From NCBI GenBank assembly GCA_965208675.1, contig OZ242351.1, positions 4,704,001 to 4,768,000 on the forward strand: DNA of 64,000 nt. The letters run 5' to 3'. The notes under the pieces are model-generated. The model was not told where the DNA came from, ran no database searches, and worked only from the letters and a program-made list of their open reading frames with translations. Made by a program: the position numbers and the translations under genes. Each line of letters begins with the position of its first letter. Within the stretch, counting starts at the first letter, position 1. Below are positions 7,344 to 24,238 of the stretch, piece by piece. The DNA is from Candidatus Poribacteria bacterium. Its GTDB lineage: Bacteria > Poribacteria > WGA-4E > PCPOR2b.

Positions 7344-8099
7344 TTGCCGCGCGCTTCGTATTATTATCAACCCGCAGCGGAAGAATCGCCGGAAAACCTG
7401 CTTTATATGCGTCTGATTGATGAACAGTACATTAAAACGCCGTGCTACGGTGTCCCTCGAATGACGGACTGGCTATGTGATAATGGCCACGCTGTCAACC
7501 GGAAACGGATTGCTCGGTTGATGCGAAAGATGGACTTAGTTGCCATCTATCCCAAGCCCCGTCTCTCCAAGCACGGCAGGCCGTCGAAAAAGTATGCTTA
7601 TCTACTGAAGGATTCAATTATCACTCGACCGGACCAGGTATGGGCAACTGATATCACCTATATCCGTTTGAACACCGGCTTTGTGTATCTAGTGGCGATT
7701 ATGGATTGGTACTCTCGATATGTGTTATCATGGGAATTGTCAAATACACTAGACGTTTACTTTTGTCTATCGGCACTGGAACGGGCATTGAGTTGTTCTA
7801 GCCCTTTGATATTCAATAGCGACCAGGGCGCGCAGTTCACGTCAGATGCCTTTACGACTCGGCTTGAATCGGCTAACATTGCCATCAGTTGGACTGGTGC
7901 TGGCAGCGTGTTTGACAACATTTTAATTGAGCGGCTCTGGCGGACCGTCAAGTATGAACATGTGTATCTTCACGCTTATGACTCAGTTCACGCGGTTTGG
8001 TGTGGCTTGAACAACTATTTCAAGTTTTATAATGAGGAGCGGCTTCATACGTCGCTCAATACTAGAACACCTCATGAGGTGTATTTTCAAAAATCCTAG
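7344..8099 (+). CDS. IS3 transposase OrfB (DDE integrase core), probably fused to OrfA by -1 frameshift
   Basis: WATDITYI, NSDQGAQFTS, DNILIERLWRTVKYE, YNEERLHTSL. Confidence 0.92.
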   Translation: MPRASYYYQPAAEESPENLLYMRLIDEQYIKTPCYGVPRMTDWLCDNGHAVNRKRIARLMRKMDLVAIYPKPRLSKHGRPSKKYAYLLKDSIITRPDQVWATDITYIRLNTGFVYLVAIMDWYSRYVLSWELSNTLDVYFCLSALERALSCSSPLIFNSDQGAQFTSDAFTTRLESANIAISWTGAGSVFDNILIERLWRTVKYEHVYLHAYDSVHAVWCGLNNYFKFYNEERLHTSLNTRTPHEVYFQKS

Positions 8100-8741: not shown

Positions 8742-10424
8742 TCAATTTGCAACCTTCTGATGTCGATGCCGCGGTCCATTTAGCAGCGTGCCAACCGGTG
8801 TATAGCGCACCAAGTATTCGTAAGTCACCAATAGCACCGCTGTGGTTGCGACACATATCAGACTGAACTTTAGCAGCGCCGGAAGTTGCCAAGGCTTAAT
8901 TAGCCATTGCGCGATGACGATTAACGGGAGGTGCGCGAGATAAATCCAGTAGGATGCATCCGAGACATACCGCCACACTCTGCTGCCTTTAACTACCAGC
9001 CGGCGAAACGCCCCCATCAAGGAAAACACCATCATCCAAGCGAACAGTGCCTGTGCGGCGACCGAGGCGATATGATTTGGCACTTCCGGATCAGCCGACC
9101 AGCCGAGCGTTAAACCGATGGGGGAGACAATTAGCAAGGCTACGGGCAGGGTGAAGAACCACCGTTTGCCGATTTTTCCGGTCTCGTCATTGCAATCGTA
9201 GTAGAGCGCGCCGAAGAAAAAGAAGATGGCATAATAAAAGAGCATGTGCGGCATAGGTAAAAAATTGGCTGAAAGGTCCGGACCAAAATTCGGGATTTTG
9301 CCTTGGGCGCCCATAAACCATTGCGGCAGCATCGTGAGCGGAATGAGCCACAGGTAGCGGCTCCACGGGAGTATGAACCTATGAAGACGACGCGACCAAC
9401 CGGTTCGATCGTCGATGGCGGCATATAATGCGAAGGCAGCCACAAACCAACATAGATACCAGAGGAACCAGAGGTGTGTGAGTATCTCGCCTGCGGTAAG
9501 GAAATTCCAAATGCGGCTCAGAATCTCGTAACCGGCGGACGCTTCTTTGCTATCCGTTATTAACTCGTGATGCCCTTGTTGTGCCATGCGATCACGGAGT
9601 ATCTCAATTACCTCCGCCCTGCCGGCTTTCACATTTTTCGAGTCAAATGAAATCTGTAAATAATTTGCGATTGCCCGTGTGTACGTCCAATTCGCCTGTG
9701 CGGTATCCAACGGTGTTTCACCGTTTAGGGTCTTGGCGGCGACATCTGCACCGTTGTCCAGAAGCAGTTTTACAATCTCCAGCTGTCCCATGAATGCCGC
9801 GGCGTGCAATGGGGTCGCCCCGTCTCTATTTTTAGCGTCAATGTCAGCCCCTGCCTCAATGAGAAGTTCCGCTGTTGCTTCCTTTCCCTCAAGGGCTGCC
9901 CATGACAGAGCCGTAACGCCGAATTCAGAATCCGCGGCGTTGGGGTCGGCGCCATCCGACAAGTGAAGCTTGAGCGCTTCAACGTCTCCAGTTTTTACTG
10001 CCGAGTAGAAATCACGTCGCCGAGTTTCTGACGGTGAACTAGGTTCGCCCTTGTCGGGCGTGATTGAAAAAGTGAAATTCGTCGCTGCAGCGAAGTAGCT
10101 AACATGGGTAATAGGGACGATGGTAAACAGCCCCAATATAAACGGGAGCAAAATGCGGCGAAACCGATGCTGCAAGAGCGACGCCAAACCTCGTTTGCGC
10201 CACAACATCGCCGTGAAGAAACCGCTCATGACAAAGAATACCGGCATTCGAAATCCGTGAATCAGCGCAAAAACGACACCGAGTCCGTCGGTTCGTTGCG
10301 TGTCTTGAACGGGCCAGATTGGCATATAAAAATATGCCATTGAAGCGTGCAATACGATGCCGAGCAGCATGGCGGCGGCACGCAAGGCATCGAGGTCGTG
10401 CCGCCGATTGGAAGGGGTGTTCAT
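8742..10424 (-). CDS. Acyltransferase family 3 (OpgC/MdoC-like) membrane protein with inserted ankyrin repeats
   Basis: RRHDLDALRA, HGFRMPVFFVMSGFF, HLWFLWYL, DASYWIYLAH. Ankyrin repeats GVTALSWAA, GATPLHAAA, GETPLD. Confidence 0.85.
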   Translation of the reverse strand: MNTPSNRRHDLDALRAAAMLLGIVLHASMAYFYMPIWPVQDTQRTDGLGVVFALIHGFRMPVFFVMSGFFTAMLWRKRGLASLLQHRFRRILLPFILGLFTIVPITHVSYFAAATNFTFSITPDKGEPSSPSETRRRDFYSAVKTGDVEALKLHLSDGADPNAADSEFGVTALSWAALEGKEATAELLIEAGADIDAKNRDGATPLHAAAFMGQLEIVKLLLDNGADVAAKTLNGETPLDTAQANWTYTRAIANYLQISFDSKNVKAGRAEVIEILRDRMAQQGHHELITDSKEASAGYEILSRIWNFLTAGEILTHLWFLWYLCWFVAAFALYAAIDDRTGWSRRLHRFILPWSRYLWLIPLTMLPQWFMGAQGKIPNFGPDLSANFLPMPHMLFYYAIFFFFGALYYDCNDETGKIGKRWFFTLPVALLIVSPIGLTLGWSADPEVPNHIASVAAQALFAWMMVFSLMGAFRRLVVKGSRVWRYVSDASYWIYLAHLPLIVIAQWLIKPWQLPALLKFSLICVATTAVLLVTYEYLVRYTPVGTLLNGPRHRHQKVAN

Positions 10425-10475: not shown

Positions 10476-10845
10476 AAGAGACTATCGCCTTCGCTATTCA
10501 CTCAGTTGATCCCTCCCTGTTCGGTCGGTTGATCATACCCAACCTACGACCCTGTAGGAGCGATTTCCTAATCGCGACATTGTTCATTCCGTGCGACCTA
10601 ACCTGTGTGATTTTTAACCTCCCCTTACCCCTCCTTGGTAAGGAGGGGGATGATGCATGTGTTCGGTTCTCATTTAACCCCTCGCTTGTGAGCGTCCTAA
10701 TAATCCTCCCCCTTTCTAAGGGGGAGATTGAGGGGGTTGGTAGCGTATCGTTGAGAACAAGGAAGACTATCGCCTTCGCTATTCACTCAGTTGATCCTTC
10801 GCTATTCGCTCAGTCGATCCCTCCTTATCAAGGCGGGGAATGATG
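10476..10845. repeat. R1 repeat cluster plus GTAG-type REP palindromes
   Basis: AAGACTATCGCCTTCGCTATTC core at about 10480 and 10763; CCCCTCCTTGGTAAGGAGGGG hairpin; GTAGGAGCGATTTCCTAATCGCGAC at about 10555. Confidence 0.8.
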
Positions 10846-13800
10846 ATTTTGTTCGGTTTCTGGATTTTCAATCACCAGCCATGTGACGAGTTCGAAGTCA
10901 GTTGCTCCGCTAATCTGATCGGTTAAAAGCGGCAGGGCGCCGCCGCGGCCTGACGTGAGGTTGTCGAAGGCGCGTTTTTTGTAGGTCTGGGCTATAGATT
11001 TTACGGTCTTTTCAAGAAGGTCGTCGTATTGGGACATTTCTGCCCCGTTAGCTGTGTATTCGTCGAACAGCGCACAGAGTTCGTCATACGGTCTGTTTTT
11101 GCCAGAGCAGAGTTGGCGGTACATTTCCAGAACCTGTTTGGGATAGGCAAATGAAAAGCGCACCATGCCATCATTTCGAATATAGACGAGGAAGTAGGGT
11201 TGGGTCGGATTCAATTTCACGTTTTCGTCCGACTCGGTTTTCTGGCGGAGGCAGAAGATGACTCCGGGTTGAATTATCGGGTCATTTGGAGGCGGCGGCA
11301 CGACAGCATAGAGCCCAAAAGGCGATTCCTCAAGTTTTTTCCGGTTACTTTCAATGTATTTTATGAGTTCTATGCGAAAATCGTCAAGCGTGAATTCGTT
11401 AAGGTTGACGTTTTCGTCAAAGTCTTCAAGGTCAAGGACTTCATCCTTGAGCCGAAGCAGTTGTTGATCACGGTATCGGAGATCGCCTTCAATCACATCG
11501 TGAAGTGCATCGGGATCGAGCAGGTTATCTCCTTGCGTAGCGGTAACGTCCACGAGCGCCATCCGGGCTTCAACCCGGTTTTTAAGGTTTATGTAACGAT
11601 TTAGATCGTCCGTGGGCCAGAAGTTGACAAGATGCACACGCTGGTTGACGCTTCCGATCCGATCAATCCGCCCGAAACGCTGTATGATGCGCACCGGGTT
11701 CCAGTGAATGTCGTAATTTATCACGTAGTCGCAGTCTTGGAGGTTTTGTCCTTCGGAGATACAGTCGGTGCCGATGAGCAAATCAATCTCCTCGTTCTGG
11801 GGCATGGATTCGTCGCTGGCACGGTTCTTCGCAATCGGGGAGAAGTTGGTGAGAATGTCGATGAAGTTGGTCCTGCCGAGCGTGGTTTTGTTCGCGCCTC
11901 CGCCTGTCACCATGCCGACGTGAATTTTCAGTTCAGTCCGCGCCCATTCGTGCAGCGCGCCGTAGAGGTAGTCGGCGGTGTCGGCAAATGCAGTGAATAC
12001 AAGCACCTTGCGATTCGGTGTATTTTCCTTCGTGGTTGTCGGATTATTTACCTTCGTCTCAACTAGTTCTTTAAGTTTAGCGAGTTTAGCATCACGGTCT
12101 ATGTTAATTTCTTTTGCCGAACGGAAGGGGCCTTCAAGCTGGTCTCGGTCATGTTGTAAATCCTCCAGCCACCGCTCAACGTCAAGGTGCGCCATCTTGA
12201 ACTTTAGGCTTTTACCAACTTCGAATGCATCCTGCCGTTCTTCGTCATCATCTGCGCCAATATTCATCTCCGCCGGATCTAGTTCAAGGTCTTCGGCTTG
12301 AGACTTTTGAAACAGTCGAATTCGCTTCTCCAAATCCTCAATCTTATCGAGCGTCCGCTTCAACGTAATCCTGAATGAATGTACGGAACTTTCCAACCGT
12401 TTAAGGAAGTTTACCTTCATCATGCCGATTAGGTAGTGCTCGCGGTCGCGCTGTGTAAAGTTATTGACCATTACTAGGTCGTATTTGGACTCGTATTCGG
12501 GGCGGAGATATTTGGTCGGATTGTAGAGGGAGAGCTGATACTGCGAAATCTCCGCGTTTAGCTCGTCGTAAGACATGAACTCACCGCGTGTATCAATATC
12601 CGGATAAACGGGTTCGGGTTTACTACGCTCCGGGAACCCGCCCAATTCCTTCAGTGAGCTAGGATAGTATTTTTCAATTTGTTTCCGGGAACGGGCGATT
12701 GTCAACCCGTCTAGCAACCTGAAGAAGGAGGTGCTTAGAATTTCAAGCAACCGTTGACTGCGGCGTACTCCATCCTGTTTTGCCCACCTGTTAAAGTCGG
12801 TTTGGGCGGCTGAGATGGTTTCTCTCAGGTTGGCGACGCCAAGCGATTCCTCGAAAGCGTCGTCACGCTCCTCCGTGAGAAAGTAGAGTTGGTTCCGTAG
12901 ATCCCTTAGGTCGTTGTTGACGGGCGTCGCGGACAGCAGCAGCATCTTGGTTTTTACGCCGCTCTTGACGATGTCTTCCATCAGCCGCTCGTAGCGGGAT
13001 CGGCTAATTGGAACCCCGTCCTCGTCCCGTTTTCCGCGGGTGTTGTTTCGGAAGTTGTGCGACTCGTCGATAACCACCAGCCCGTAGTTTCCCCAGTTAA
13101 ACGATGCAAGGTTAATATCGCCCGACTTACCGCTGCTCCGGCTCAGGTCGGTGTGCGACAGAACAGTGTAACCGAAGCGGTCGTTGGGAAACGGATTAAA
13201 CGTGTTTCCGGTGTGGGCTTGGTAGAGCGTCCAGTTCTCGCGCAATTTCTTGGGGCACAGCACCAGCACGTTTTCGTTGCGGAGTTCAAAGTACTTTATC
13301 ACCGCCAGCGCCTCGAACGTCTTGCCCAAACCGACGCTGTCAGCGATGATGCAGCCGTTGTGCGTCAAGATTTTATTGATGGCGCCTTTCACGCCGTCCT
13401 TCTGGAATTCATAGAGAACTTTCCAGATTTGGGTATCAACCAGTTGCGGCGGTTCGTCCAGCAGCCCCCACCCCTCCTGATCGCCCAAAAATTTTTCAAA
13501 AACGTGAAAAAGTGTTTTGTAGTATATGAATTCCGGGTCGTGATTCTCATAGAGCTGTTTTAAGTAGGTCAACACCTGTTCCTTAACGTCATCAACCCGA
13601 TTCTTGTCGTTCCAGAGTTCATCAAACCACAATTTCAAGTCGTTCAGGTCGCGCTTGTCTTCCACCGTCAGATTGAGTTCAATGTTACCCGCTGTTTGAC
13701 TTAACCCTAAACCCCGAACGGTAAAATTTGAACTGCCGAGGATGGCGTTTTCAACGCCGTTCTTAGCGATGTGGTACATCTTGCCGTGCAGCAAATTTGA

Positions 13801-14160
13801 TTCACGGATTGACCGCACCTCTACTTTCTCCTCAATCCAGTCAGCGCATTCCCGTGCCACCTGCTTGAGTTGAAGTTGGTTCCTCAAACGCAATCCGTCG
13901 CTATTTATGATGAAAGATTTCTTTTCAGATTTCTCGGAGTCTAGCCGATTAATGAATCGGGGTTCGCCGAATAGAAAGCGAAGGTCCCTGATTTGATACA
14001 GGGATGATTTCAACGCCTCGAAGGCGTAAATTGTAAAGTAAGCGGATACAACCGAGAGTGACGAACCGTTTTCGATTTGTGACTTCAGAAACTCGCCAAC
14101 CGTACCCCGCTCGCGGTTATCGCGGATGCCGGACGGGAATAGCGTCGTGTTTTCTGGCAT
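10828..14160 (-). CDS. PLD-nuclease domain plus SNF2-like SF2 helicase (restriction-modification associated)
   Basis: LHGKMY...GSSNFT (PLD), IADSVGLGKT, VIDESHNFRN, SATP, QRFGRIDRIG. Confidence 0.9.
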   Translation of the reverse strand: MPENTTLFPSGIRDNRERGTVGEFLKSQIENGSSLSVVSAYFTIYAFEALKSSLYQIRDLRFLFGEPRFINRLDSEKSEKKSFIINSDGLRLRNQLQLKQVARECADWIEEKVEVRSIRESNLLHGKMYHIAKNGVENAILGSSNFTVRGLGLSQTAGNIELNLTVEDKRDLNDLKLWFDELWNDKNRVDDVKEQVLTYLKQLYENHDPEFIYYKTLFHVFEKFLGDQEGWGLLDEPPQLVDTQIWKVLYEFQKDGVKGAINKILTHNGCIIADSVGLGKTFEALAVIKYFELRNENVLVLCPKKLRENWTLYQAHTGNTFNPFPNDRFGYTVLSHTDLSRSSGKSGDINLASFNWGNYGLVVIDESHNFRNNTRGKRDEDGVPISRSRYERLMEDIVKSGVKTKMLLLSATPVNNDLRDLRNQLYFLTEERDDAFEESLGVANLRETISAAQTDFNRWAKQDGVRRSQRLLEILSTSFFRLLDGLTIARSRKQIEKYYPSSLKELGGFPERSKPEPVYPDIDTRGEFMSYDELNAEISQYQLSLYNPTKYLRPEYESKYDLVMVNNFTQRDREHYLIGMMKVNFLKRLESSVHSFRITLKRTLDKIEDLEKRIRLFQKSQAEDLELDPAEMNIGADDDEERQDAFEVGKSLKFKMAHLDVERWLEDLQHDRDQLEGPFRSAKEINIDRDAKLAKLKELVETKVNNPTTTKENTPNRKVLVFTAFADTADYLYGALHEWARTELKIHVGMVTGGGANKTTLGRTNFIDILTNFSPIAKNRASDESMPQNEEIDLLIGTDCISEGQNLQDCDYVINYDIHWNPVRIIQRFGRIDRIGSVNQRVHLVNFWPTDDLNRYINLKNRVEARMALVDVTATQGDNLLDPDALHDVIEGDLRYRDQQLLRLKDEVLDLEDFDENVNLNEFTLDDFRIELIKYIESNRKKLEESPFGLYAVVPPPPNDPIIQPGVIFCLRQKTESDENVKLNPTQPYFLVYIRNDGMVRFSFAYPKQVLEMYRQLCSGKNRPYDELCALFDEYTANGAEMSQYDDLLEKTVKSIAQTYKKRAFDNLTSGRGGALPLLTDQISGATDFELVTWLVIENPETEQNHHSPP

Positions 14161-14268
14161 ATTCTTCTCCTATGGGTCGGTGTCTGCTATTTTGGGGCTT
14201 TGAACTGTCTGAATCGCGGATTGGCGCGGATTTTGCGGATTACGCAGATTAAAACGTCGTAATCTGCG

Positions 14269-14670
14269 TCAATTTTTATCGGATTGCGTGAGTATTAACC
14301 TTTTGAATGTCAATTTTTTCGATCCGAAATTAATCAATAATCCGACTTTCAACCGGTATGTTCTCAAGTAATTTAACGCTTGGGCGATGTGCACGTCTTC
14401 CAGGTCGGTTATCGCTTTTAATTCCACCAATACCTTTTCTTCGACCACGAAATCTGCTCGACGAGTACCGATTGGTTCCGGCACATCTTTGTAGAAAATA
14501 TCTCGCTCCATTTCGCGCGCAAATGCCAAGCCTGCCCGCGCCAACTCAATTGCTAATCCTCGCTAATTTATCACCTCTTGAAAGCCGTTTCCTAAAAACT
14601 TGTGCACTTCAAACGCAGCCCCAATAATCTTTTCGGTGATATCCCTGTGTTTTAGATTGCCGCTCGTCAT
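14269..14670 (-). pseudogene. GxxExxY protein (PD-(D/E)XK-like), inactivated copy
   Basis: ATG at 14670, same length as the 16304-16705 paralogue, but the motif reads GFQEVIN*RGL (TAG at 14563-14565). Confidence 0.88.
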
Positions 14671-15233
14671 GCGTATGGGGTGTTGGTATGTATTCTTCTT
14701 TGTCTGAATCGCGGATTGGCGCGGATTAAGGGATTACACGGATTGAGAAGACCACACTATCAACCTGCTAACCGTGGGAGGGGACCTCCCCCGATTGGAT
14801 TAGCGATGAATCGGGACTGCCCTCAATCGCATCGGGGTATTGGTGCCTGCCCAAAGACAATAATGCCCAACAGCAATCATGAGCAGGGAAACCACAAGTA
14901 TCTTAATCCCGATTTATAGGGGGTTACCCCGACAAAAATTAACCATTTGCAGAGATGGATCACATCGCTTTACACCTTCTTTTACATGAGGCGAAATGTG
15001 GTGAATCTTATAGCCGTTTACATTCATATTTACACACATTCAGATACCCCCCTGATAAGGGGGGCTAGGGGGGTTGACACCTCTTTTTGATCGGAGTGAA
15101 GGTAATGTGTAATTTTTAGTTGCAGTGACTATAGATTTAATGAGACGCTCCGAACCGGTGCCGTTCGGAAACCGCGCCTACCGCGGAGGACGAAAGCGTC
15201 TATTTTTTTGGTGTTCACCATAATTTAGGGCAC

Positions 15234-16001
15234 TCATGTGACATCGAGGAACAGTTTACGACCATTTAACGGCTGTACCGGCCGGTTGTTGCCGTGGATA
15301 ATCGCTTTAAATGCCGCAATTTGCGATTCAGACATCTCAGCGGGTGTTGTGAGCACAATCCATTTGACACCCTCTGTACATGGCGGGGTCGTCAGTGAAC
15401 CGTCGTAGCGGTAGGTGCTAGGAAAAGTCTGTATTGCCGGATCTCGCATCTGTCCATTGGACGAGAGCATCAAATCAAGATCGATAACGACATTCTCAAT
15501 GCGCTGTTTTTCGAGCGGCGAGGACGGTAAGGAAGCCCAGATTGGGTCGAATGCAGGGTGGTGACGACCACTCTCGATTAACAAACCCACGACTGCTAAA
15601 TCGCCCGCTTCACTTTCGTGAACGAGGTGCATTTCCATGTCAAACGATTTACCTTCTACCGTATGTTCGCTAGGTGCATGGAAATGGAATTGGAGCAGTT
15701 GATAGTCGGTGCCATCGATCTGGATTCGGCTGCCTTCAGGATACGCCACTTCAATCGTGTGTCCATTATGGTGGACGTTCACACTCGTTGCAGTGTAATA
15801 CTCATAGAAGATTGGCGAAAGTTGGGTTGGCATTGGGTTCACAATGTCGATAGGTGATTGGTGCGTACCCTCGCCGCAAAGGATATATTCCTGATTAAGG
15901 TGCCCCCAAACATCCGGCCCATTCTCTGCTGCATAACCCCATTCCGCCTTGTGAGTATGGGCGGGAAATTTTTTTGTCCTATCACAACCTGTTATACACA
16001 T
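15234..16001 (-). CDS. cah: Alpha-class carbonic anhydrase (signal peptide probably interrupted by TGA)
   Basis: QSPIDI, QFHFHAPSEH, EMHLVH, YDGSLTTPPCTEGVKW, NNRPVQPLNGR. An in-frame SD-ATG lies upstream at 16097, with TGA at 16008-16010. Confidence 0.9.
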   Translation of the reverse strand: MCITGCDRTKKFPAHTHKAEWGYAAENGPDVWGHLNQEYILCGEGTHQSPIDIVNPMPTQLSPIFYEYYTATSVNVHHNGHTIEVAYPEGSRIQIDGTDYQLLQFHFHAPSEHTVEGKSFDMEMHLVHESEAGDLAVVGLLIESGRHHPAFDPIWASLPSSPLEKQRIENVVIDLDLMLSSNGQMRDPAIQTFPSTYRYDGSLTTPPCTEGVKWIVLTTPAEMSESQIAAFKAIIHGNNRPVQPLNGRKLFLDVT

Positions 16002-16303
16002 AATAAATCAGATAACGAAGATAAATCTCTTCGCAATACAAGGACTCTGGAAATCGAGCCATGTTAGTAGTAAATAGACTTGGAATTGCGTCGTCATCAA
16101 TCAGATAACCTCCGAGTTTTTTATCGGCAACGTTCAGAATTTGTTTGAGAGAAGATATGGAGAAAACGGGAAAACGAGAAGCTGACAAAGATTTTGTTTG
16201 TCTGAATCGCGGATAGCCGCGGGTTTTACGGATAACGCAGAACAGTCTGAATCACGGATTGCCGCGGATTAAAGGATTACACGGATTAAAGGCGTTATTT
16301 GAA

Positions 16304-16705
16304 TCAGCGGCGATTCGGTTGCGTGAGAATTAACCTTTTGAATGTTAATTTTTTCGATCCGAAATTAATCAATAATCCGACTTCCAACCGATATGTTCTC
16401 AAGTAATTTAACGCTTGGGCGATGTGCACGTCTTCCAACTCGGTTATCGCTTTTAATTCCACCAACACCTTTTCTTCGACCACGAAATCTGCCCGACGAG
16501 TACCGATGGGTTCCTGCACATCTTTGTAGAAAATATCCCGCTCCATTTCGCGCACAAATACCAAACCCGCCCGTGCCAACTCAATCGCTAATCCTCGCTG
16601 ATATATCACCTCTAGAAAGCCGTTTCCCAAAAACTTGTGCACTTCAAACGCAGCCCCGATAATCTTTTCGGTAATATCGCTGTATTTTAGATTGGCGTTC
16701 GTCAT
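16304..16705 (-). CDS. GxxExxY protein (PD-(D/E)XK-like nuclease fold)
   Basis: IIGAAFEVHKFLGNGFLEVIYQRGL, RRADFVVEEKVLVELKA, AQALNYL, GLLINFG. Confidence 0.92.
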   Translation of the reverse strand: MTNANLKYSDITEKIIGAAFEVHKFLGNGFLEVIYQRGLAIELARAGLVFVREMERDIFYKDVQEPIGTRRADFVVEEKVLVELKAITELEDVHIAQALNYLRTYRLEVGLLINFGSKKLTFKRLILTQPNRR

Positions 16706-17097
16706 TCGTATGGGGTGTTGGTATGTATTCTTCTTTGTCTGAATCGCGGATTGGCGCGGATTTTGCGGATAACACAGATAGAAGAAAACCACGATTTTGG
16801 GGTTTGTTCCGCAAAACTCGGTATTGCGATTTCATTGTTGATATTCCAACAGAGATACATAACTGTCAGACACATCTCCGAAGTCGAAATTTGACAAAAC
16901 TTGACAAAATTTGACAGATTTTGTTTTTTCTCCGCAATGCACTCATTCATCGCCGTAGAGCCGCAATTGTCTGAATCGCGGATTGGCGCGGATTTTGCGG
17001 ATAACACAGATAGAAGAAAACCATCGCATTTGGGTTCGTTTCGCAACAAGGGGTGTCAGGTTTTCATCGTCAATGTGTCACAGCGGTCTGTAATTTG

Positions 17098-17928
17098 TCA
17101 CGCCTGCGGCGGCGACAGCATGGCGGTGATGTCTGGCGGCAGCTTCACCTCATGTTTCTGCTCGAAGTCCGGGACGCTTTCGTAGTCGTTTTGGAACGCG
17201 GCAATAACATTTAATCCCAAATTCTCAGCGGTAATCAGGTCTGCTTTGGCTTTTTCCCATTCCGCCAGGATTAACCACGCTTCACCACGATTGTAATAGG
17301 CATCGGCATAGTCTGGTTTCAGTTGCACGGCTTTAGTATAATCTACGATGGCACGCTCAACCTCCCTCTTTTTTACATAGGTTACGCCGCGATTGCTATA
17401 GGCTTCCGTTAACTTGGTATTTAGCGCTAATGCCTTGTTAAAATCTACGATAGCGCGGTCATATTCTCCTGTACGGAGGTAGGCTGTCCCCCGATTGTAA
17501 TAAGGTTCCGCATAATCCGGTTTCAACGCAAGTGCCTTGTTAAAGTCATCAATGGCTCGGTCATAATCCTTCTTGTCGCGGTAAGTGCTGCCACGATTAT
17601 TATAGGCTTGTGCATACACCGGCTTCAGTTGAATCGCCATATTATAGTCTTCGATAGCCCGGTCATACTTGGCTATCTCGTGCCGAACAACGCCACGATT
17701 GTTGTAGGCTATTGCATAATTAGGATTAATCTCTATTGCCTTGGTAAAATGTTCAATGGCATGGTCATAGTCTCGTGCGTTGAGATAATCAAGGCCGAGA
17801 TTGTTTAAGATTGCGGCGTCGCGCCGCTTTTGGCGCGCTTCTGGTCCGCGATGAATTTCGCCGAGTTCTGGTGCGTGTTCCTTCATATAAGCTTGATAAT
17901 CAAATTCCGCTTCCTTTATAGTATTCAT
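17098..17928 (-). CDS. TPR protein with a short antitoxin-like N-terminal head
   Basis: About 6 TPRs (AYNNRG...AI.D...A..L.P). The start overlaps the BrnT gene and has a GGAGA SD. Confidence 0.85.
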   Translation of the reverse strand: MNTIKEAEFDYQAYMKEHAPELGEIHRGPEARQKRRDAAILNNLGLDYLNARDYDHAIEHFTKAIEINPNYAIAYNNRGVVRHEIAKYDRAIEDYNMAIQLKPVYAQAYNNRGSTYRDKKDYDRAIDDFNKALALKPDYAEPYYNRGTAYLRTGEYDRAIVDFNKALALNTKLTEAYSNRGVTYVKKREVERAIVDYTKAVQLKPDYADAYYNRGEAWLILAEWEKAKADLITAENLGLNVIAAFQNDYESVPDFEQKHEVKLPPDITAMLSPPQA

Positions 17929-18184
17929 CGACCAATCTCCTTTCCGCATCAAAAGCAGTGATTAAACGGTAAACTGGCAATTCTTCGTCGGAATAAACCA
18001 CTGCCAACAGTCGATTATCGACGGTCTTTCCTACAAGCATCCACCGGTCGTCGTGCCCGGTGGGAGCGGGGATTTCGTATCCATTTGGATCATCAAATGC
18101 AGAGACTACCTCATGAAATTGGACACCGTGTTTTCTTTCCACTTCTTTAAATTTGTCTGCATCCCATAAAAATCCGATATCCAT
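17900..18184 (-). CDS. brnT: BrnT-family toxin
   Basis: FLWDADK...KHGVQFHEVVSAFDD...RWMLVG...RLITA. Confidence 0.8.
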   Translation of the reverse strand: MDIGFLWDADKFKEVERKHGVQFHEVVSAFDDPNGYEIPAPTGHDDRWMLVGKTVDNRLLAVVYSDEELPVYRLITAFDAERRLVDEYYKGSGI

Positions 18185-18575
18185 GTGATGGAGTCCATGT
18201 ATTTTACCAAATTATTGTAGAATTGCGTTGAGATTAGAAATCATCGGGATGCTGCACGATGACATGGTGAGGATAATTTCTTCCACAAATGTGTGTGCTT
18301 TCTTGTCTGAATTGCGGATTGAGGAAAAACACGGATTGAAGAATCCGCGTTATCCCCTTAATCCGTTTAATCTGTGATTCAGACAATTGGCGCCTCATTT
18401 ATAATCCATTTATTGTCTGAATCGCGGATAGCCACGGATTTTACGGAAAACACAGATTGAATAAATTCATCATATTTGGTTCGTTTGGCTTCGTTTCGCA
18501 AAAATGGGAATTACGTTTTTCATTGCGGCAACTTCTCTTATTCATCGCCAAGGAGGTACGTTAGTCTGTCATCGT

Positions 18576-20978
18576 TCACTCCTGCGATGGCGTCAGCATC
18601 GCAGCGATGTCCGCCGGTAGCTTCACCCCATTTCTCCGCTCGAAGTCCGGGACACTTACGTAGTCGCTATGAAATGAAGCGATAATATTTTTCCCCATGT
18701 CTCTGGCAATCATCAGATCTGATTTCGCTTTCTCCCATTCTCCTACGTGTAACCACGCCTCACCTCGATAATTATAGGCATTCGAATCATTGGGATTCAG
18801 TTCTATGGCTTTGGTGAAGTCTACGATGGCACTGTCATTCTCTCCGACTTTACGGTAAGCGACGCCGCGATTACAATAATAATGGGCCTCATCAGGTTTC
18901 AATTCTATTGCTACATTAAAGTCAACAATCGCGCAGTCCAATTGGCCTCTGCTGGCGAAAACAACACCGCGACTGTTATAGGCCAGGGCAAGGTCGGGTT
19001 TGAGTTGTATCGCTTTGGCATAGTCTGTGACGGCATGCTTAGAATCACTTTTGTTCCTGTAAGCATTGCCACGATTGTAATAAGCTATAGTATAATTGGG
19101 ATCGAGTTCTATTGCTTTGGTGTAGTCTGTGATAGCGCGGTCATGATTATCCTTCTGATCGTAGGCATTGCCGCGATTGAAATAGGCTTCGGGATAATCG
19201 GGTTTGAGTTGTATCGCTTTGTCGTAGTCTGCGATGGCACGGTCATTATCGCCCTTGTTGAAATGTGCCCTGCCTCGATAATAATATGCTAAGGCTTCCC
19301 TTGGTTCCATGTCTATCACTTGAGTATAGTCTGCAACAGCGCAATTATAATCGCCGATATTATAATAAGCCATGCCTCGACAAAAATAAGCCTCAGTATA
19401 ATCGGATTTTAGTTGTAAGGCTTTTCCGAAGTCGGCTACGGCCGAGTCAAAATTGTTCATATCATTGTAAGTAGATCCACGGTAGAAAAAAGAGTTCGCG
19501 TTGTAGGGGTTGAGTTGTATCGCGCTGCTAAAGTTCGAAATTGCCAATTCGAAATGGTGCTCTCTGGCGTGAACCATGCCACTCCTGAAAAAGGCTTCCT
19601 CATCTTTGGGATTCAGTTGGAGAGTTTTAGTATAGTCTTGAATGGCACGGTCTGAAGCGCCGTTATCGTCGAAAGCAACACCACGCCTGAAATAGGCTTC
19701 CCCGTAATCGTGTTCCAACTCTATCGCAGTGTTATAGTCTTCAATGGCGCGGTTAAGTTCGCCCTTGGCACTGTAGGCATTACCGCGATTGTAATAGGCG
19801 TTTGCATAATCGGATTTGAGGTGGATCGCCCAACTAAAGTCTGAAATAGCCGCATTATACTGATTTTTCTTGGCCTTAGCAACTCCGCGATTGTTGTAAG
19901 CCTTGGCACAATTTGGGTTAAGTTTTATTGAGGTGTTGAAATCGGCAATGGCCGAGTCATGTTCGTTTCTGTCATTATAAACAGTGCCGCGATTGTTATA
20001 AGTTTCGGCACTATTAGGGTTGAGTTCCAACGCTTTGTTATAGTCTTCGATGGCGTGGTTAAGTTCTCCAATACTACTGTAAGCCGCTCCGCGATTGCTA
20101 TACGCCTCAACAAAAGCGGGGTAGAGTTGTATCGCAATTTTGAAATCTTCAATATCGGCGCTATGCTCCCCCAGATGATTGAAGGCAACGCCGCGATTGT
20201 TATAAACTGGGGACAGTTCCAAATTCAGTCTTAGGACATTGGTGTAATGACTAATGGCTTCTTTGCATGCCTTTCGTGCTTCTTTAGAGGTCTTTGCTTT
20301 GGCCGCTTCACGCTGTAATCTAAGCCCTCTATAATACTCTCTGTATGCTATTCCATTATCGCTCTGGCTTCTAATAAATCCATGGATATCTTTGTAAATG
20401 GTCTTGGCAGATACTTCGTCTTCCAGCACCTCCCGTAGATATTTCAATATGAGTAGTTTCACGACTGATGGAATACAGATTTCCTTATATTCCAACTCAA
20501 TATAACCCTTCGGTGGTTCAACGAATACGCTCTTTTGGGCACGGACGCGAACTTCTGGTGTTTGGGGCTTGTGGCGGATTTTCTCTAATTCATCCGTTTC
20601 CTGCAATATAATTACTCTGCCACATTCAGCCGGCGTTCCATAACAAGCAAAGAAGAGGGCAACGGTATAGTCAGTTGTAAAATCAATTAAGTTGGTTTTA
20701 CCGCCATAGTGCTGGATTTCAGTGAGGATGTCAAAATATTCTGTTTTGTCTGTATACTCTTTTGCCTCCGCTACAATGGAGTCCTGGATTTCCTTTAAGT
20801 TAGAGTATCTAGCATTAACATTTTCTAGCTCGCGGTATAGGTTCGAAGATATTTTCTCATAGCATTCAGGTTCACCGCGGAAGATGTAAGAACCGTCTGC
20901 AGATTTTTCCTCTATAGCGTGGACGATGTCCTGAACTGTGCGGGGCATATCATTGGAGGTATTGGATCGATTTGACAT
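18576..20978 (-). CDS. FRG-domain protein with a long TPR array
   Basis: YIFRGE and QHYGGKTNLIDFT..ALFFAC (FRG), followed by roughly 14 TPRs. Confidence 0.88.
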   Translation of the reverse strand: MSNRSNTSNDMPRTVQDIVHAIEEKSADGSYIFRGEPECYEKISSNLYRELENVNARYSNLKEIQDSIVAEAKEYTDKTEYFDILTEIQHYGGKTNLIDFTTDYTVALFFACYGTPAECGRVIILQETDELEKIRHKPQTPEVRVRAQKSVFVEPPKGYIELEYKEICIPSVVKLLILKYLREVLEDEVSAKTIYKDIHGFIRSQSDNGIAYREYYRGLRLQREAAKAKTSKEARKACKEAISHYTNVLRLNLELSPVYNNRGVAFNHLGEHSADIEDFKIAIQLYPAFVEAYSNRGAAYSSIGELNHAIEDYNKALELNPNSAETYNNRGTVYNDRNEHDSAIADFNTSIKLNPNCAKAYNNRGVAKAKKNQYNAAISDFSWAIHLKSDYANAYYNRGNAYSAKGELNRAIEDYNTAIELEHDYGEAYFRRGVAFDDNGASDRAIQDYTKTLQLNPKDEEAFFRSGMVHAREHHFELAISNFSSAIQLNPYNANSFFYRGSTYNDMNNFDSAVADFGKALQLKSDYTEAYFCRGMAYYNIGDYNCAVADYTQVIDMEPREALAYYYRGRAHFNKGDNDRAIADYDKAIQLKPDYPEAYFNRGNAYDQKDNHDRAITDYTKAIELDPNYTIAYYNRGNAYRNKSDSKHAVTDYAKAIQLKPDLALAYNSRGVVFASRGQLDCAIVDFNVAIELKPDEAHYYCNRGVAYRKVGENDSAIVDFTKAIELNPNDSNAYNYRGEAWLHVGEWEKAKSDLMIARDMGKNIIASFHSDYVSVPDFERRNGVKLPADIAAMLTPSQE

Positions 20979-21097
20979 TTCTATTCATCCTCCTGCAGGA
21001 TGCTGATTTCCTTATTGTCCGAATCGCAGATTGCCGCGGATTAAAGGATTACATGGATTTATATGTCCGCTGTCAGCTTCATCCATCAATCCTTGAT

Positions 21098-24000
21098 TTA
21101 AACGGTATTTTCCTCCACAATCGCAATTTCTTCAGGGGTTAGATCGTACAATGAGTATACAACCTGATCAATCTCATTTTCAAGTTCGGATACATCGGCG
21201 TCTGGGTCGGCGCGTTTGGCAGCGAGGATTTTATTAACTAGGTTACTGATAAATGATTTCTGCGCCGAATTGGCAGCAGGGATTGGAATCTGTCTCATGT
21301 AGTCGCTAAATGCGCGAAGTGCCGCCCCTCCCAATCTATTCGACACCAGCGAATAAAACCACTCCACAGATTTAGAATTAAGTAATCCACATAGCCAAGT
21401 TTCCTCTGTAGGGATAAAATAACAGGAATTACTACAGAAGAAACCAGTCGTATCAACTGTGAAACTTTGGTGTTGGAATATATCAGGATAAACAACTTTC
21501 GGTAGCAGGAAATCACGCCAATAATCTGATGCATATCGACTTAGAGCATACCACGGAACACGCCCTTGTTTTACTTCTGGGCGTTTCTTTAATTTTCTCT
21601 CATACTTTTTCAGATAGGCAAAAATTGCGGGATACTCTTCAATTGGTAAATCCCATCCAACGTAACACAGGTAATGTCCTTTATCTTCAATTGTCCAGCG
21701 TTTCACGTCGCGTCCACGCAAAAATGGTTTTAACACTTGGATGGATGATGGATGATCCGCAATGAGTTGATTCTGCACCGGTTGGTCCACAACAAACGCT
21801 TCGTTCAAACCTGTTACAACACCGCGATAGAACCTTTCTTTCACATATTCTCCCAATGGTATACCCACTTTGCGGAGTATATCCAACAGATTCAATACGG
21901 CGGGAGGTGCGAGCTGCCATCCGTCAGCGGTTAAGGCATTTTGTGGCATTTTAAATCTCTGCCTCCGAAAAACTGTCCCAAGTTCGTCAATGGGCGGTCC
22001 CGGTTGCCAATTCAGAGCGCTAAGATGGTTCGCGTCAGAGAGGGTCTTGGACATAGTAATAATGCTAGCATCTACACCGGCCGAAAATACGCGACCCGCG
22101 CCAAAGTCAATGATATTGGAAAATGTACAATTACGAGTGAGAAATCCACGAAGTTTCTTGCCGTAGGCAGAACGGAAATATTTATTAGAAGAGATGTAGG
22201 TCAAGACTCCGTTGTTTCGGAGCAGCCGGCAGCCCTGTTCATAGAAATAGACGTAGAGATCTGCTACACCTGAATAACAGTCGTATAGGGTTTTTAGCGT
22301 CGGTTTCAGTGCTTTAATTTTCTCCTGGCGTACGTACGGTGGATTGCCGATTACGACGTCAAATCCGTCCTTGATACTGAACATCCATTCGGGATTAAAA
22401 AAGCGAGCTACGGAATTCTGGTCATAAGGGTCCCAATCTGCAATTTCACGCGCGGCCTCGCTTGACAGTCCTAAATCACTTAGTATTCCACTAATTTCTG
22501 TACGGAGTTCTGCATCGCGTTCGCGATAGCGCTTTTTTGTGGCGGGAGTGCGTGCCGTGAAGTGTCTCCGGCGAACCTCTTGCAGTTCATCTTCTCTTTT
22601 TCGAATCTCTGAATCTCGGAGCGTCCGTTGACCTGTAATATCAATCAATGTGTTTGCTGCCACAAACTTGGTTTCTAGATTTGGTAGCGGACGTACCCCA
22701 CGATTTTCCTGAGAGTCGTCCATCTTCTGATTCACCACTAGCGATATAAAGAATCGGAGTTTTGCAATTTGCACGGCGATAGGCTGTATATCCACACCAT
22801 AGATGCAGTTTTCGATGAGGTAGAGTTTCCGTCCGTAATCCAGTTCATTCCGTTCAAACGCCTCGTTGATGTTGTCAATTTCGCGCTCTAGGTCGTGGAC
22901 AGTATTCTCACGTACCGTGCTATCGTCAATCTGTTCTGCGATTTTGATGGTGCGATTCACTTTGTCAATCTGCCGCTGTCGCCACTGCTCGTTGCCCGGG
23001 TCAAGTTTCCCCAAGATAAACACCAGTTTGTGCAGCACACCCATCGGAAAGGCACCGGAACCGCAAGCGGGGTCAAGTATTCTGAGGGAGTCAACTGCGT
23101 TTATCAACGCTTCAGTTTCGTCGTCGTTAAAACGGTGCGGTTCGTCATTATAGGCGAGAAGATGCCGGAGGTTAGCTTCTATTTGGTCTTTTTGCTCATC
23201 AGAGAGTTTTACTCCACGAGCATCAAATTGCGTTTGGACAGGTTCTACACGCCCATCCAAATCCAGTTGCGCGGACGGGGCAGTCGGGGCAAGGGCGTTA
23301 CGGGATTCGTGATAGGCGATGCATTTATGCTTTAGGTAGGCAATGAGTGATTCATCGGTCATGTAGTTGACGATTTCACGGGGGGTGTAGTAGGAGCCAC
23401 TCTGCTTACGGGCAGAAGTACCGGTTTCGGGGTTATAGGCGGCGAGCAGGTTCTCAAACACTTTGCCGAGCAGTTCCGGGTCAAGTGCAACCTCCTCTTC
23501 GATTGGCGTATTCTCGGCAACCGTGAATTTGTACCTATCGAGAATATTGATCAGGCCGCGTACTTTGTAATCCTTGCCGCGTGTGCCGTAAGCGGCGTTG
23601 AGGTCAACGCTTTGTTCATCGGAGAAGAATAGGAAATTTGGGACAATTAACGGGTTTTTTTTATGGTCGGAAAAGCCATCAACGCGTAGAATTTTTTTAG
23701 GGACATCTTTGTCTTCCTTGTCCAGACATTCAAACAAACCGCCGTTAAGGAAAGGAATGTCACCAAAATGTTTGAACGCGCTTTGCTTATCCTTGAAACA
23801 ATTTTCGTACCGGTATAGGGAATGCGCCATGTAGTTTTGATCTCTATCGCCTGATTGCTTCGCCTGAATCCTGAATTTGCGGTTATTGGGTTTTTCTTCG
23901 GTGTTCATTTCCTGATTCAGTGTAGCGAAGAACAGGTTCTGTAGGATAGCCTTGTAGTAGGTACTCTGCTCGGGTTCCGTGTTATCAAGGATTTTTGCAA

Positions 24001-24238
24001 TTTCCCTTGGGTAAAAGAGCGCATCCGAAATTAACCCTTTTTCCTTGATGAACCAGACGAAAATCAGCCGTGTTATCAGCCGGATCACGCTGGTGGCGTT
24101 ACGCACCTCGAAATCTTTCCCTGCATCTTCAGGGAAAGTTACTTGATTAACCGCCCAAAAATACCAGTTCGCAATCTCTTTGAAGAAGCGTTTGTTGAGT
24201 ACCTCAGTGTCGAGCGTCTTTTTCCACGCTTCATGCAA
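21098..24238 (-). CDS. Eco57I/Type IIG-like N6-adenine DNA methyltransferase with TRD (main part of a split gene)
   Basis: SGSYYTPRE, ILDPACGSGAF, VIGNPPY, TaqI_C-like TRD. In frame with 24296-24862. Confidence 0.9.
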   Translation of the reverse strand: MHEAWKKTLDTEVLNKRFFKEIANWYFWAVNQVTFPEDAGKDFEVRNATSVIRLITRLIFVWFIKEKGLISDALFYPREIAKILDNTEPEQSTYYKAILQNLFFATLNQEMNTEEKPNNRKFRIQAKQSGDRDQNYMAHSLYRYENCFKDKQSAFKHFGDIPFLNGGLFECLDKEDKDVPKKILRVDGFSDHKKNPLIVPNFLFFSDEQSVDLNAAYGTRGKDYKVRGLINILDRYKFTVAENTPIEEEVALDPELLGKVFENLLAAYNPETGTSARKQSGSYYTPREIVNYMTDESLIAYLKHKCIAYHESRNALAPTAPSAQLDLDGRVEPVQTQFDARGVKLSDEQKDQIEANLRHLLAYNDEPHRFNDDETEALINAVDSLRILDPACGSGAFPMGVLHKLVFILGKLDPGNEQWRQRQIDKVNRTIKIAEQIDDSTVRENTVHDLEREIDNINEAFERNELDYGRKLYLIENCIYGVDIQPIAVQIAKLRFFISLVVNQKMDDSQENRGVRPLPNLETKFVAANTLIDITGQRTLRDSEIRKREDELQEVRRRHFTARTPATKKRYRERDAELRTEISGILSDLGLSSEAAREIADWDPYDQNSVARFFNPEWMFSIKDGFDVVIGNPPYVRQEKIKALKPTLKTLYDCYSGVADLYVYFYEQGCRLLRNNGVLTYISSNKYFRSAYGKKLRGFLTRNCTFSNIIDFGAGRVFSAGVDASIITMSKTLSDANHLSALNWQPGPPIDELGTVFRRQRFKMPQNALTADGWQLAPPAVLNLLDILRKVGIPLGEYVKERFYRGVVTGLNEAFVVDQPVQNQLIADHPSSIQVLKPFLRGRDVKRWTIEDKGHYLCYVGWDLPIEEYPAIFAYLKKYERKLKKRPEVKQGRVPWYALSRYASDYWRDFLLPKVVYPDIFQHQSFTVDTTGFFCSNSCYFIPTEETWLCGLLNSKSVEWFYSLVSNRLGGAALRAFSDYMRQIPIPAANSAQKSFISNLVNKILAAKRADPDADVSELENEIDQVVYSLYDLTPEEIAIVEENTV

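Follow-up and report, generated by a model that had tools for sequence, protein, structure and literature searches.

Integron arrays are built on attC sites and an IntI integrase, and integrase-less arrays (clusters of attC sites lacking integron-integrases, CALIN) also exist. The pdif modules of Acinetobacter plasmids, in turn, are bounded by 28-bp XerC/XerD sites that alternate in orientation. Two further kinds of system invite comparison: miniature inverted-repeat transposable elements (MITEs) with their parent elements, and the repetitive extragenic palindromic sequences (REPs) and their inverted doublets (REPINs), which accompany REP-associated tyrosine transposases (RAYTs; PMC3116915, PMC3337134). 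Here we describe a gene array that resembles each of these in part. It lies between a DNA methylase gene and a helicase gene in a 64,000-nt stretch of a Candidatus Poribacteria genome (GCA_965208675.1, contig OZ242351.1, positions 4,704,001 to 4,768,000; hereafter the window, in whose coordinates positions are given unless another sequence is named), and every junction between its modules carries a short repeat, termed the arm. We conclude with high confidence that arms are the ends of an element that carries a gene for a GxxExxY protein, a small PD-(D/E)XK nuclease, and with fairly high confidence that the arrays are sets of exchangeable units, each made of open reading frames (ORFs) and an arm.

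A first-pass annotation, made from the sequence alone, had placed a co-oriented repeat at every junction between methylase and helicase. This is borne out: all seven module junctions hold at least one arm, and the nine plus-strand copies of the 16-mer that marks it begin at 14206, 14701, 16199, 16244, 16736, 16968, 18304, 18414, and 21016, as had been listed. One inverted copy (18370-18385), which forms a palindromic doublet with the copy at 18304, had been missed. With up to three mismatches allowed, the 16-mer matches the window 13 times where 0.81 matches are expected, and none of 100 shuffles yields 13. The accompanying claim that the 64 kb hold no copy elsewhere also stands, because the matches at 22606 and 49717 (three mismatches each) are at chance level and a profile search of the window with nhmmer finds no further arm. 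The core of the arm spans ~48 nt and consists of a terminus, TTGTCTGAATC, followed by three or four CGGATT-type units at a spacing of 9-10 nt; these units stand one helical turn apart. Arms occupy ~8% of the 6.9-kb interval. Folded singly they are weakly structured (-6.6 to -14 kcal/mol, z -0.4 to -2.2), and the palindromic doublet (18303-18387) has a DNA fold of -26.6 kcal/mol (z -4.9). Doublets are also seen at 3515631/3515680 and at methylase 3' ends in three other loci (L040-L042), and solo arms outnumber them.

The tie between arm and nuclease gene was assessed in 41 genomes of the order, comprising the window's genome (G000), the other three genomes of its genus (G001, G002, and G003), and further relatives, 40 relatives in all. 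Among 30 GxxExxY loci, the window's arm type adjoins all ten close homologues of the window's GxxExxY gene (phmmer E<=1e-57) and none of the 20 others. A second arm type stands solely beside a second GxxExxY gene type, in six of 12 loci, and crossed pairings do not occur. The intact GxxExxY gene of the window is the sole intact copy in its genome of the type that is paired with the window's arm, and it is flanked on both sides, by arms 29 nt upstream and 13 nt downstream. These two arms are direct, unlike the canonical layout, in which they are inverted with termini outward; among the ten close homologues the upstream arm is direct in five, inverted in three, and missing in two.

For a wider set, a nine-sequence profile was searched against one genome per species, giving 595 relatives, of which the best 80 loci were analyzed; because of the profile used, these are biased toward close relatives (58-82% protein identity). 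They come from about ten phyla, with sources among the Poribacteria, Latescibacteria, Bacteroidota, Cyanobacteria and their non-photosynthetic kin, Chlorobiota, Ignavibacteria, Spirochaetes, Fibrobacteres, Nitrospirae, Verrucomicrobia, Calditrichota, Chloroflexota, and one candidate-phylum lineage. Both flanks could be tested in 75 loci, and in 63 of these the repeats shared by the upstream and downstream flanks have scores beyond the 95th percentile of those from displaced control pairs (inverted repeats in 52, direct repeats in 46). In 33 of the 80 loci the 13-mer terminus lies no more than 200 nt from the gene, compared with ~0.02 expected (an estimate from motif degeneracy and the span searched), and the 9-mer GTCTGAATC occurs in 37, compared with ~3 expected (an estimate from the span searched). 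In about ten loci the arrangement is canonical, with two inverted arms whose termini point outward and a length of 473-682 bp. Conservation of the terminus beside GxxExxY genes far exceeds what drift would allow. Taken together, the pairing of arm types with gene types and the flank results across phyla identify the arm as the cognate end-repeat of the nuclease gene, and the GxxExxY element with its arms is an undescribed small selfish element. The link between repeat and GxxExxY gene that the first-pass annotation had proposed is thereby upheld.

Six of the Bacteroidota loci (L051, L052, L055, L057, L060, and L066) hold canonical elements of 473-482 bp at the 3' end of a histidine-kinase-like gene, and the right flank of each repeats the C-terminal coding sequence of that gene over ~40-90 nt by eye (the full extent was taken from L051, and the other five were judged on 40-nt flanks). 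Such an arrangement points to a preferred target or, alternatively, to duplication of the gene's end upon insertion. The second arm type mentioned above has the same terminus with AGGAT units, and is dispersed rather than clustered; in the window's genome it is found at 91, 964, 2289, 2757-2771, 2865, 2919, 4148, and 4204 kb, the copy at 964 kb accompanying a GxxExxY gene.

As with MITEs and their parents, the full form of the element has terminal inverted repeats around one gene, and gene-less derivatives outnumber full copies. Unlike MITE parents, GxxExxY encodes no known transposase and no target-site duplication was identified, and unlike MITEs, solo half-elements in a single orientation predominate. 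The resemblance to REPs and REPINs lies in a short intergenic repeat that occurs as singlets and inverted doublets, is tied to one gene at low copy per genome, and co-varies in type with that gene. The analogy to RAYT/REP systems drawn in the first-pass annotation allowed for a different enzyme, and no RAYT accompanies the arrays: where RAYTs are HUH/Y1 transposases, the linked gene here encodes a PD-(D/E)XK nuclease of 133 aa. Furthermore, RAYTs are mostly vertical, whereas the GxxExxY gene and its arms cross phyla, and arms cluster in arrays at gene junctions instead of being dispersed as REPs are.

All genes from the methylase to the helicase are on the minus strand; this arrangement, the gene order, and the gene identities first assigned from the sequence, that of the broken GxxExxY gene included, agree with matches to Pfam, TIGR04256, and PADLOC (Table 1). 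Read on the gene strand, each unit comprises a leader, one or more ORFs, a trailer, the CGGATT array, and the terminus, and the next unit begins directly after that terminus. For six real genes the distance from terminus to ATG is 26-49 nt. The units are all co-oriented, and most leave too little space for a promoter of their own. The methyltransferase is the proximal anchor of the array and the helicase, with orthologues at 79-91% identity in three congeners, its conserved distal anchor; the junction between methylase and arm is kept at paralogous methylase loci.

This anatomy raises the question of whether the arm is an expression signal, that is, an operator, a processing or stabilizing site of a polycistronic RNA, or an insulator, its position at unit boundaries being a by-product. 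The strict orientation of arms relative to transcription would fit such a role, as would the tight placement of the terminus ahead of the start codons of unrelated genes. Yet sigma-70-like promoter hits in the region (17) show no excess over the shuffle mean of 14.4, and upstream of the cassette genes none is found on the gene strand; terminators are not enriched over shuffles; no Rfam family matches at E<=1; and single arms fold weakly. Arms also flank the nuclease gene as inverted repeats in unrelated phyla and form tandem runs of up to ten, neither of which speaks for an expression signal, and we give this explanation little credence.

The parallel with integrons is closer. In both, single-gene units, co-oriented and mostly promoterless, are each closed by a conserved repeat, a single fixed gene anchors the array, whole units distinguish related strains (as is the case here), and the cargo is rich in toxin-antitoxin and defense genes. 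The strict orientation of the units, their short leaders, and their anchoring at the methylase 3' end have their parallel in integron arrays expressed from one upstream promoter. This likeness is functional and not one of membership, since tests for an integrase and for attC structure found neither. In place of the imperfect hairpin and the R''/L''-L'/R' boxes of attC, arms have a terminus and phased direct sub-repeats, and an attC-like hairpin was rejected on account of these sub-repeats and the weak folding of single arms; the attC analogy first offered for the repeat accordingly fails on structure. Nor is there a tyrosine recombinase at or near the arrays: the four PF00589 matches in the genome all lie at least 29 kb from any of its six arm clusters. 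No neighbor of the window's array has a recombinase domain, an IS3-type transposase standing 6 kb away, and of four Y1-transposase matches (PF01797) in the genome one is 7 kb from a cluster, and no arm has such a match as its neighbor. Linkage is confined to a single gene, that of the PD-(D/E)XK nuclease.

The units also recall pdif modules in being discrete, in including toxin-antitoxin pairs, and in having short conserved bounding sites in many contexts, but arms are 48 nt long, keep one orientation, and bear no resemblance to dif. A site-specific cassette system, with a recombinase encoded elsewhere that acts in the manner of XerCD on dif and with GxxExxY as mere cargo, would nonetheless account for the integron-like anatomy of the arrays and for the conservation of arms in genomes without GxxExxY. 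The distance of the tyrosine recombinases, and the presence of just one of the four Y1-transposase matches within 10 kb of a cluster, speak against it, and random cargo would not be expected to co-vary with arm type and to travel with it across phyla. We therefore regard such a system as improbable.

Beyond the window, an nhmmer profile search of the whole 4.89-Mb genome gives 25 arm copies (E<1e-3) in six clusters of 1, 4, 7, 1, 3, and 9 copies. All six are in restriction-modification (R-M) or defense contexts: behind a type I HsdR gene (L001), behind another Eco57I-type methylase and an FRG-TPR gene (L002), upstream of a paralogue of the HKD-SNF2 helicase amid Schlafen/AlbA_2 and AAA_21 genes (L003), at the border of a Schlafen/HNH block with a third methylase nearby (L004), in the interval separating DUF1156 from DUF499 genes (L005), and in the window's own array. 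All but one of the 25 arms are antisense to the flanking genes, an orientation that recurs in all six clusters. Across the order, the 16-mer is found in 33 of the 41 genomes (reversed-pattern controls, 0-1) and a GxxExxY match (E<=1e-5) in 22; 20 genomes have both, 13 have arms alone, two have the gene alone as weak, divergent matches, and six have neither. A 35-kb array in G040 (L043-L045, G040:C2:8400-43300), a genome without a GxxExxY match, contains 115 arm hits and ~20 single-gene units and is made up in large part of members of two paralogous gene families (63-94% identical), tandem arm runs of 69-nt period, and three copies of an insertion sequence. The insertion-sequence copies in or by this array are near-identical. 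Its spacers have a plus-strand arm past the stop codon, then ~200 nt, and then two to ten tandem minus-strand arms with a 69-nt period; a reading of these runs as clustered regularly interspaced short palindromic repeats (CRISPR) was rejected because the "spacers" are identical, which makes the whole a 69-nt tandem repeat.

Units are gained, lost, and replaced with breakpoints in arms. The gene set between helicase and methylase differs in each of the four genomes of the genus, and a search for strains that differ by whole repeat-bounded modules, suggested as a check when the repeat was first noticed, was positive both for a swap in G002 and for carbonic-anhydrase units. The G002 helicase shares 91% protein identity with that of the window. 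Between G000 and G002, identity spans the helicase, ends ~20 nt inside the arm at 14204, and resumes exactly at the terminus of the arm at 14699; the broken GxxExxY unit that occupies this interval in G000 has a ParE-type toxin-antitoxin unit in its place in G002. At the arm at 16197, G000 has an extra, arm-bounded 537 nt, consisting of a solo arm and the GxxExxY unit, and a block of two arms and a non-coding unit (16736-17041) has its G002 counterpart (88.6% match) beyond the opposite end of the TPR gene. Four of the five module-level breakpoints are inside an arm, and the fifth is ~30 nt from one. The carbonic-anhydrase gene, present in 11 of the 41 genomes, is arm-flanked in all seven loci of family f1 (seven genomes) and in none of the four loci of families f2 and f3. 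In family f1, the loci share DNA homology (85-90%) across the unit but not beyond it, with different neighbors, and in three genomes this homology begins directly past the arm terminus.

On a larger scale, the orthologues of the window's methylase in G001 and G003 (62-82% identity) lie at other loci, and its helicase is orthologous to the helicase locus of G001-G003. This gives the window's array the look of a recombinant between two arrays, whose ends seem to have been exchanged. The usual partner methylase of the helicase, of a ~1180-1240-aa type, is found in G000 at 1.81 Mb, without a helicase. The window's stretch is present in sponge metagenomes, and in assembled contigs of four runs the contigs break at arms. 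One contig, of run X3, reads from the helicase through an arm, a GxxExxY-like unit, and a second arm into 16745-16871, skipping ~2 kb with the joint inside an arm; it was not counted as an excision, because the two GxxExxY units are 89% alike and the placement is ambiguous.

The best explanation of these results, held with middling confidence, combines arms of selfish-element origin with exchange of units from arm to arm, the nuclease being the likely trigger. On this view the arm is the ~48-nt end-repeat of a small selfish element whose full form (~480 bp) has the GxxExxY gene between two arms. Single arms stand after nearly all genes and gene pairs of the variable islands in this sponge-associated order, and these islands start at the 3' end of R-M genes, so that a unit consists of a short leader, its ORF(s), a trailer, and an arm. 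Units would then move by recombination between arms, most likely triggered when GxxExxY breaks or binds an arm and host homologous recombination repairs the site with another arm as template; if active, the protein would cut, and the joining would be left to host repair. Tandem duplication would add further units. Of the original proposal that the repeat is the site of a GxxExxY-driven capture system, the link to the gene and the exchange of units have stood, while a part of the nuclease in driving the exchange is only inferred.

It is also conceivable, though rather doubtful, that arms and GxxExxY constitute a previously unknown, integrase-free gene-capture system, in which the terminus is cut and arm-to-arm repair inserts, removes, or swaps units of ORF and arm. 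If so, this system builds integron-like libraries of defense, toxin-antitoxin, and other genes directly behind R-M methylase genes, and spans an order of sponge symbionts, with its core element in about ten bacterial phyla.

Several results weigh against a part for the nuclease in exchange. The arm is tied to a GxxExxY gene type but is not confined to GxxExxY loci: mapping of the 16-mer, which the first-pass annotation had called for, led to many genomes of the order, and the profile search led to six R-M/defense clusters; five of these clusters have no GxxExxY gene, because the three GxxExxY loci found by a genome-wide phmmer search are two in the window and one at 964 kb. Thirteen of the 33 arm-bearing genomes are without a GxxExxY match, among them G040 (316 copies), G021 (71), and G005 (60); the nuclease is therefore not needed for arms to persist, or perhaps to multiply. 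In the G040 array, the paralogous genes and the 69-nt tandem arms imply growth by duplication and not by capture. The helicase-side breakpoint in G001 and G003 is 9-31 nt outside the position of the arm, and neither genome has an arm at that point. Any recombination within a 48-nt repeat would put breakpoints in it, so that a dedicated mechanism and RecA are not distinguished by their position. Neither circles nor empty sites were seen in the contigs of the four metagenome runs, and this analysis found no evidence that the nuclease catalyzes capture. A 133-aa nuclease cannot alone join DNA, and the arrays are without a linked recombinase. Finally, since the genomes compared are kin, the counts are not independent events.

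Much of this would be met by passive repeats, in which arms are decayed, gene-less GxxExxY elements, similar to MITEs or REPINs, that have accumulated in the spacers of poorly constrained islands. Ordinary RecA recombination at these 48-nt homologies, whether it follows DNA uptake or joins paralogous arrays, would make all the swaps, and neither the nuclease nor a site-specific step would take part. The retention of arms in genomes that have no GxxExxY gene, the tandem duplication in G040, the lack of a nearby recombinase, and the orthology of methylase and helicase to separate loci, which points to recombination between arrays, are all consistent with such an origin. Random insertion, however, would give both orientations, and 24 of 25 arms in the six clusters share one; the G002 arm at the swap junction, only ~22 nt long, is a poor substrate for homologous recombination; and the conservation of the terminus beside the gene across phyla argues for recognition by a protein. 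Passive repeats are thus a possible explanation, if on balance an unlikely one.

With respect to the protein itself, the intact GxxExxY sequence matches TIGR04256 with 131 bits (cut-off 35; E 2e-38) and PF13366 with 125.5 bits (cut-off 22; E 2e-36). Residues G29-E32-Y35 and D73, E83, and K85 are invariant or nearly so in an alignment of 14 sequences. A structure model with a predicted local distance difference test (pLDDT) score of 90.8 has Cas4 SSO0001 as its best fold match (E 3.7e-4, template modeling score, TM, 0.59), and RecE and Hjc also match; as modeled, the protein is a bare PD-(D/E)XK domain, and the predicted fold matches only generic PD-(D/E)XK or Cas4-like structures. No solved structure matches it by sequence at E<=1, and no PADLOC model matches it. 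In a superfamily survey, the function of GxxExxY/PDDEXK_3 is listed as "Unknown" (PMC3424549). Literature searches on GxxExxY, PF13366, PDDEXK_3, and TIGR04256 returned few papers, the passages retrieved making passing mention of the family, and in such passages no GxxExxY element bounded by terminal inverted repeats appears in print. Passages returned for PDDEXK with REPIN/RAYT, for Poribacteria R-M with repeats, and for cassettes with defense islands likewise describe no such arrays. As GxxExxY/PDDEXK_3 is a large and widespread family, its tie to a specific DNA repeat supplies a testable substrate. The arrays show a route by which defense islands are assembled from exchangeable units without an integrase, which bears on how R-M loci turn into hotspots for new immune genes. 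If the nuclease is sequence-specific for the terminus, it would also serve as a compact programmable-site nuclease that comes with a natural recognition module of its own.

Table 1. Genes, arms, and other features between the helicase and the methyltransferase, in window coordinates (arm E values from nhmmer).
Feature	Coordinates	Strand	Evidence and remarks
PLD (HKD) + SNF2 helicase	10828..14160	-	Pfam PLDc_2, SNF2-rel, Helicase_C; PADLOC C3a139 "HKD+Snf2", E 3e-127
Arm 1	14204..14253	+	Terminus 14204-14216, then CGGATT array; E 4e-16; 3' end of broken-GxxExxY cassette, 45 nt before helicase ATG
Broken GxxExxY gene	14269..14670	-	Tyr35->Asn, then TAG stop (one in match); 89% DNA identity to intact copy; TIGR04256 E 3.6e-23 on 91-aa ORF
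Arm 2	14699..14748	+	E 1e-14; 3' end of carbonic-anhydrase cassette
Dispersed ~125-nt repeat	15009..15133	.	Unrelated to arm; within trailer of carbonic-anhydrase cassette
Alpha carbonic anhydrase	15234..16001	-	PF00194 E 4e-42; cassette cargo
Tandem arm 3	16197-16242	+	E 4e-14; G002 holds one arm at the arm 3/4 site
Tandem arm 4	16243-16290	+	E 1e-13; 3' arm of GxxExxY cassette
Intact GxxExxY PD-(D/E)XK nuclease gene	16304..16705	-	133 aa
Arm 5	16734..16783	+	E 2e-16; terminus 29 nt ahead of GxxExxY ATG
Non-coding unit between two arms	16784..16965	-	3 x 10-nt TTGACAAAA-type tandem repeat; families D8, D13
Arm 6	16966..17015	+	E 2e-16; 3' end of BrnT+TPR cassette
TPR gene	17098-17952	-	284 aa; matches TPR families; overlaps BrnT-like gene, one cassette
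BrnT-like toxin gene	17900-18184	-	PF04365 E 3e-15
Arm doublet, then arm	18303-18340 / 18342-18387, then 18412-18461	+ / -, then +	nhmmer; inverted repeats I15, I19
FRG-domain + TPR protein	18576..20978	-	800 aa; PF08867 + TPR; PADLOC PDC-S15
Arm at methylase gene 3' end	21014..21061	+	E 4e-13; array start
Eco57I-type (type IIG-like) DNA methyltransferase	21098..24238	-	PF07669, TaqI_C; PADLOC REase_MTase_IIG E 3e-108

The cargo of the window's array is varied. The FRG-TPR gene is the first cassette behind the window's methylase, and likewise behind the methylases of L002 and L037; because it leads behind three different Eco57I-type methylases, it may functionally belong to the methylase. The TPR cargo proteins (17063-17362 compared with 18541-18840, and those of L002 and L037) have a common C-terminal tail and 3' trailer, and their N-terminal heads differ, with FRG, TIR, or a BrnT gene in front. 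The BrnT+TPR cassette is matched in DNA (74%) at another methylase locus, L042 of G001. The broken GxxExxY gene belongs to direct repeat family D3.

Two non-coding features of the array were also characterized. The unit between arms 5 and 6 is possibly a promoter or small-RNA cassette; it was considered as a dispersed element and rejected as such, since the TTGACAAAA-type motif is all of it that recurs in the genome, and this motif is found again just past arm termini at 471.86 kb and 1810.1 kb. The ~125-nt repeat in the trailer of the carbonic-anhydrase cassette is missing at the same site in G002 (a blastn gap against L037), and a 140-nt probe gives 28 further blastn hit rows in the genome, full or partial. 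A depth peak and loose ends occur at 15008/15133 in the four metagenome runs, and the repeat bears G-rich/C-rich hairpin-like runs. In the carbonic anhydrase gene itself, a weak arm-like match (15319-15334, nhmmer E 0.28) falls within the C-terminal coding region; it is kept in five genus g5 loci (L128-L132), goes undetected in L127 of G002, and is probably a coding coincidence and not an element. Beyond the end of the helicase are an IS3-family transposase ORF (rve domain) and a 560-aa acyltransferase-ankyrin fusion, at 7344-8099 and 8742-10424.

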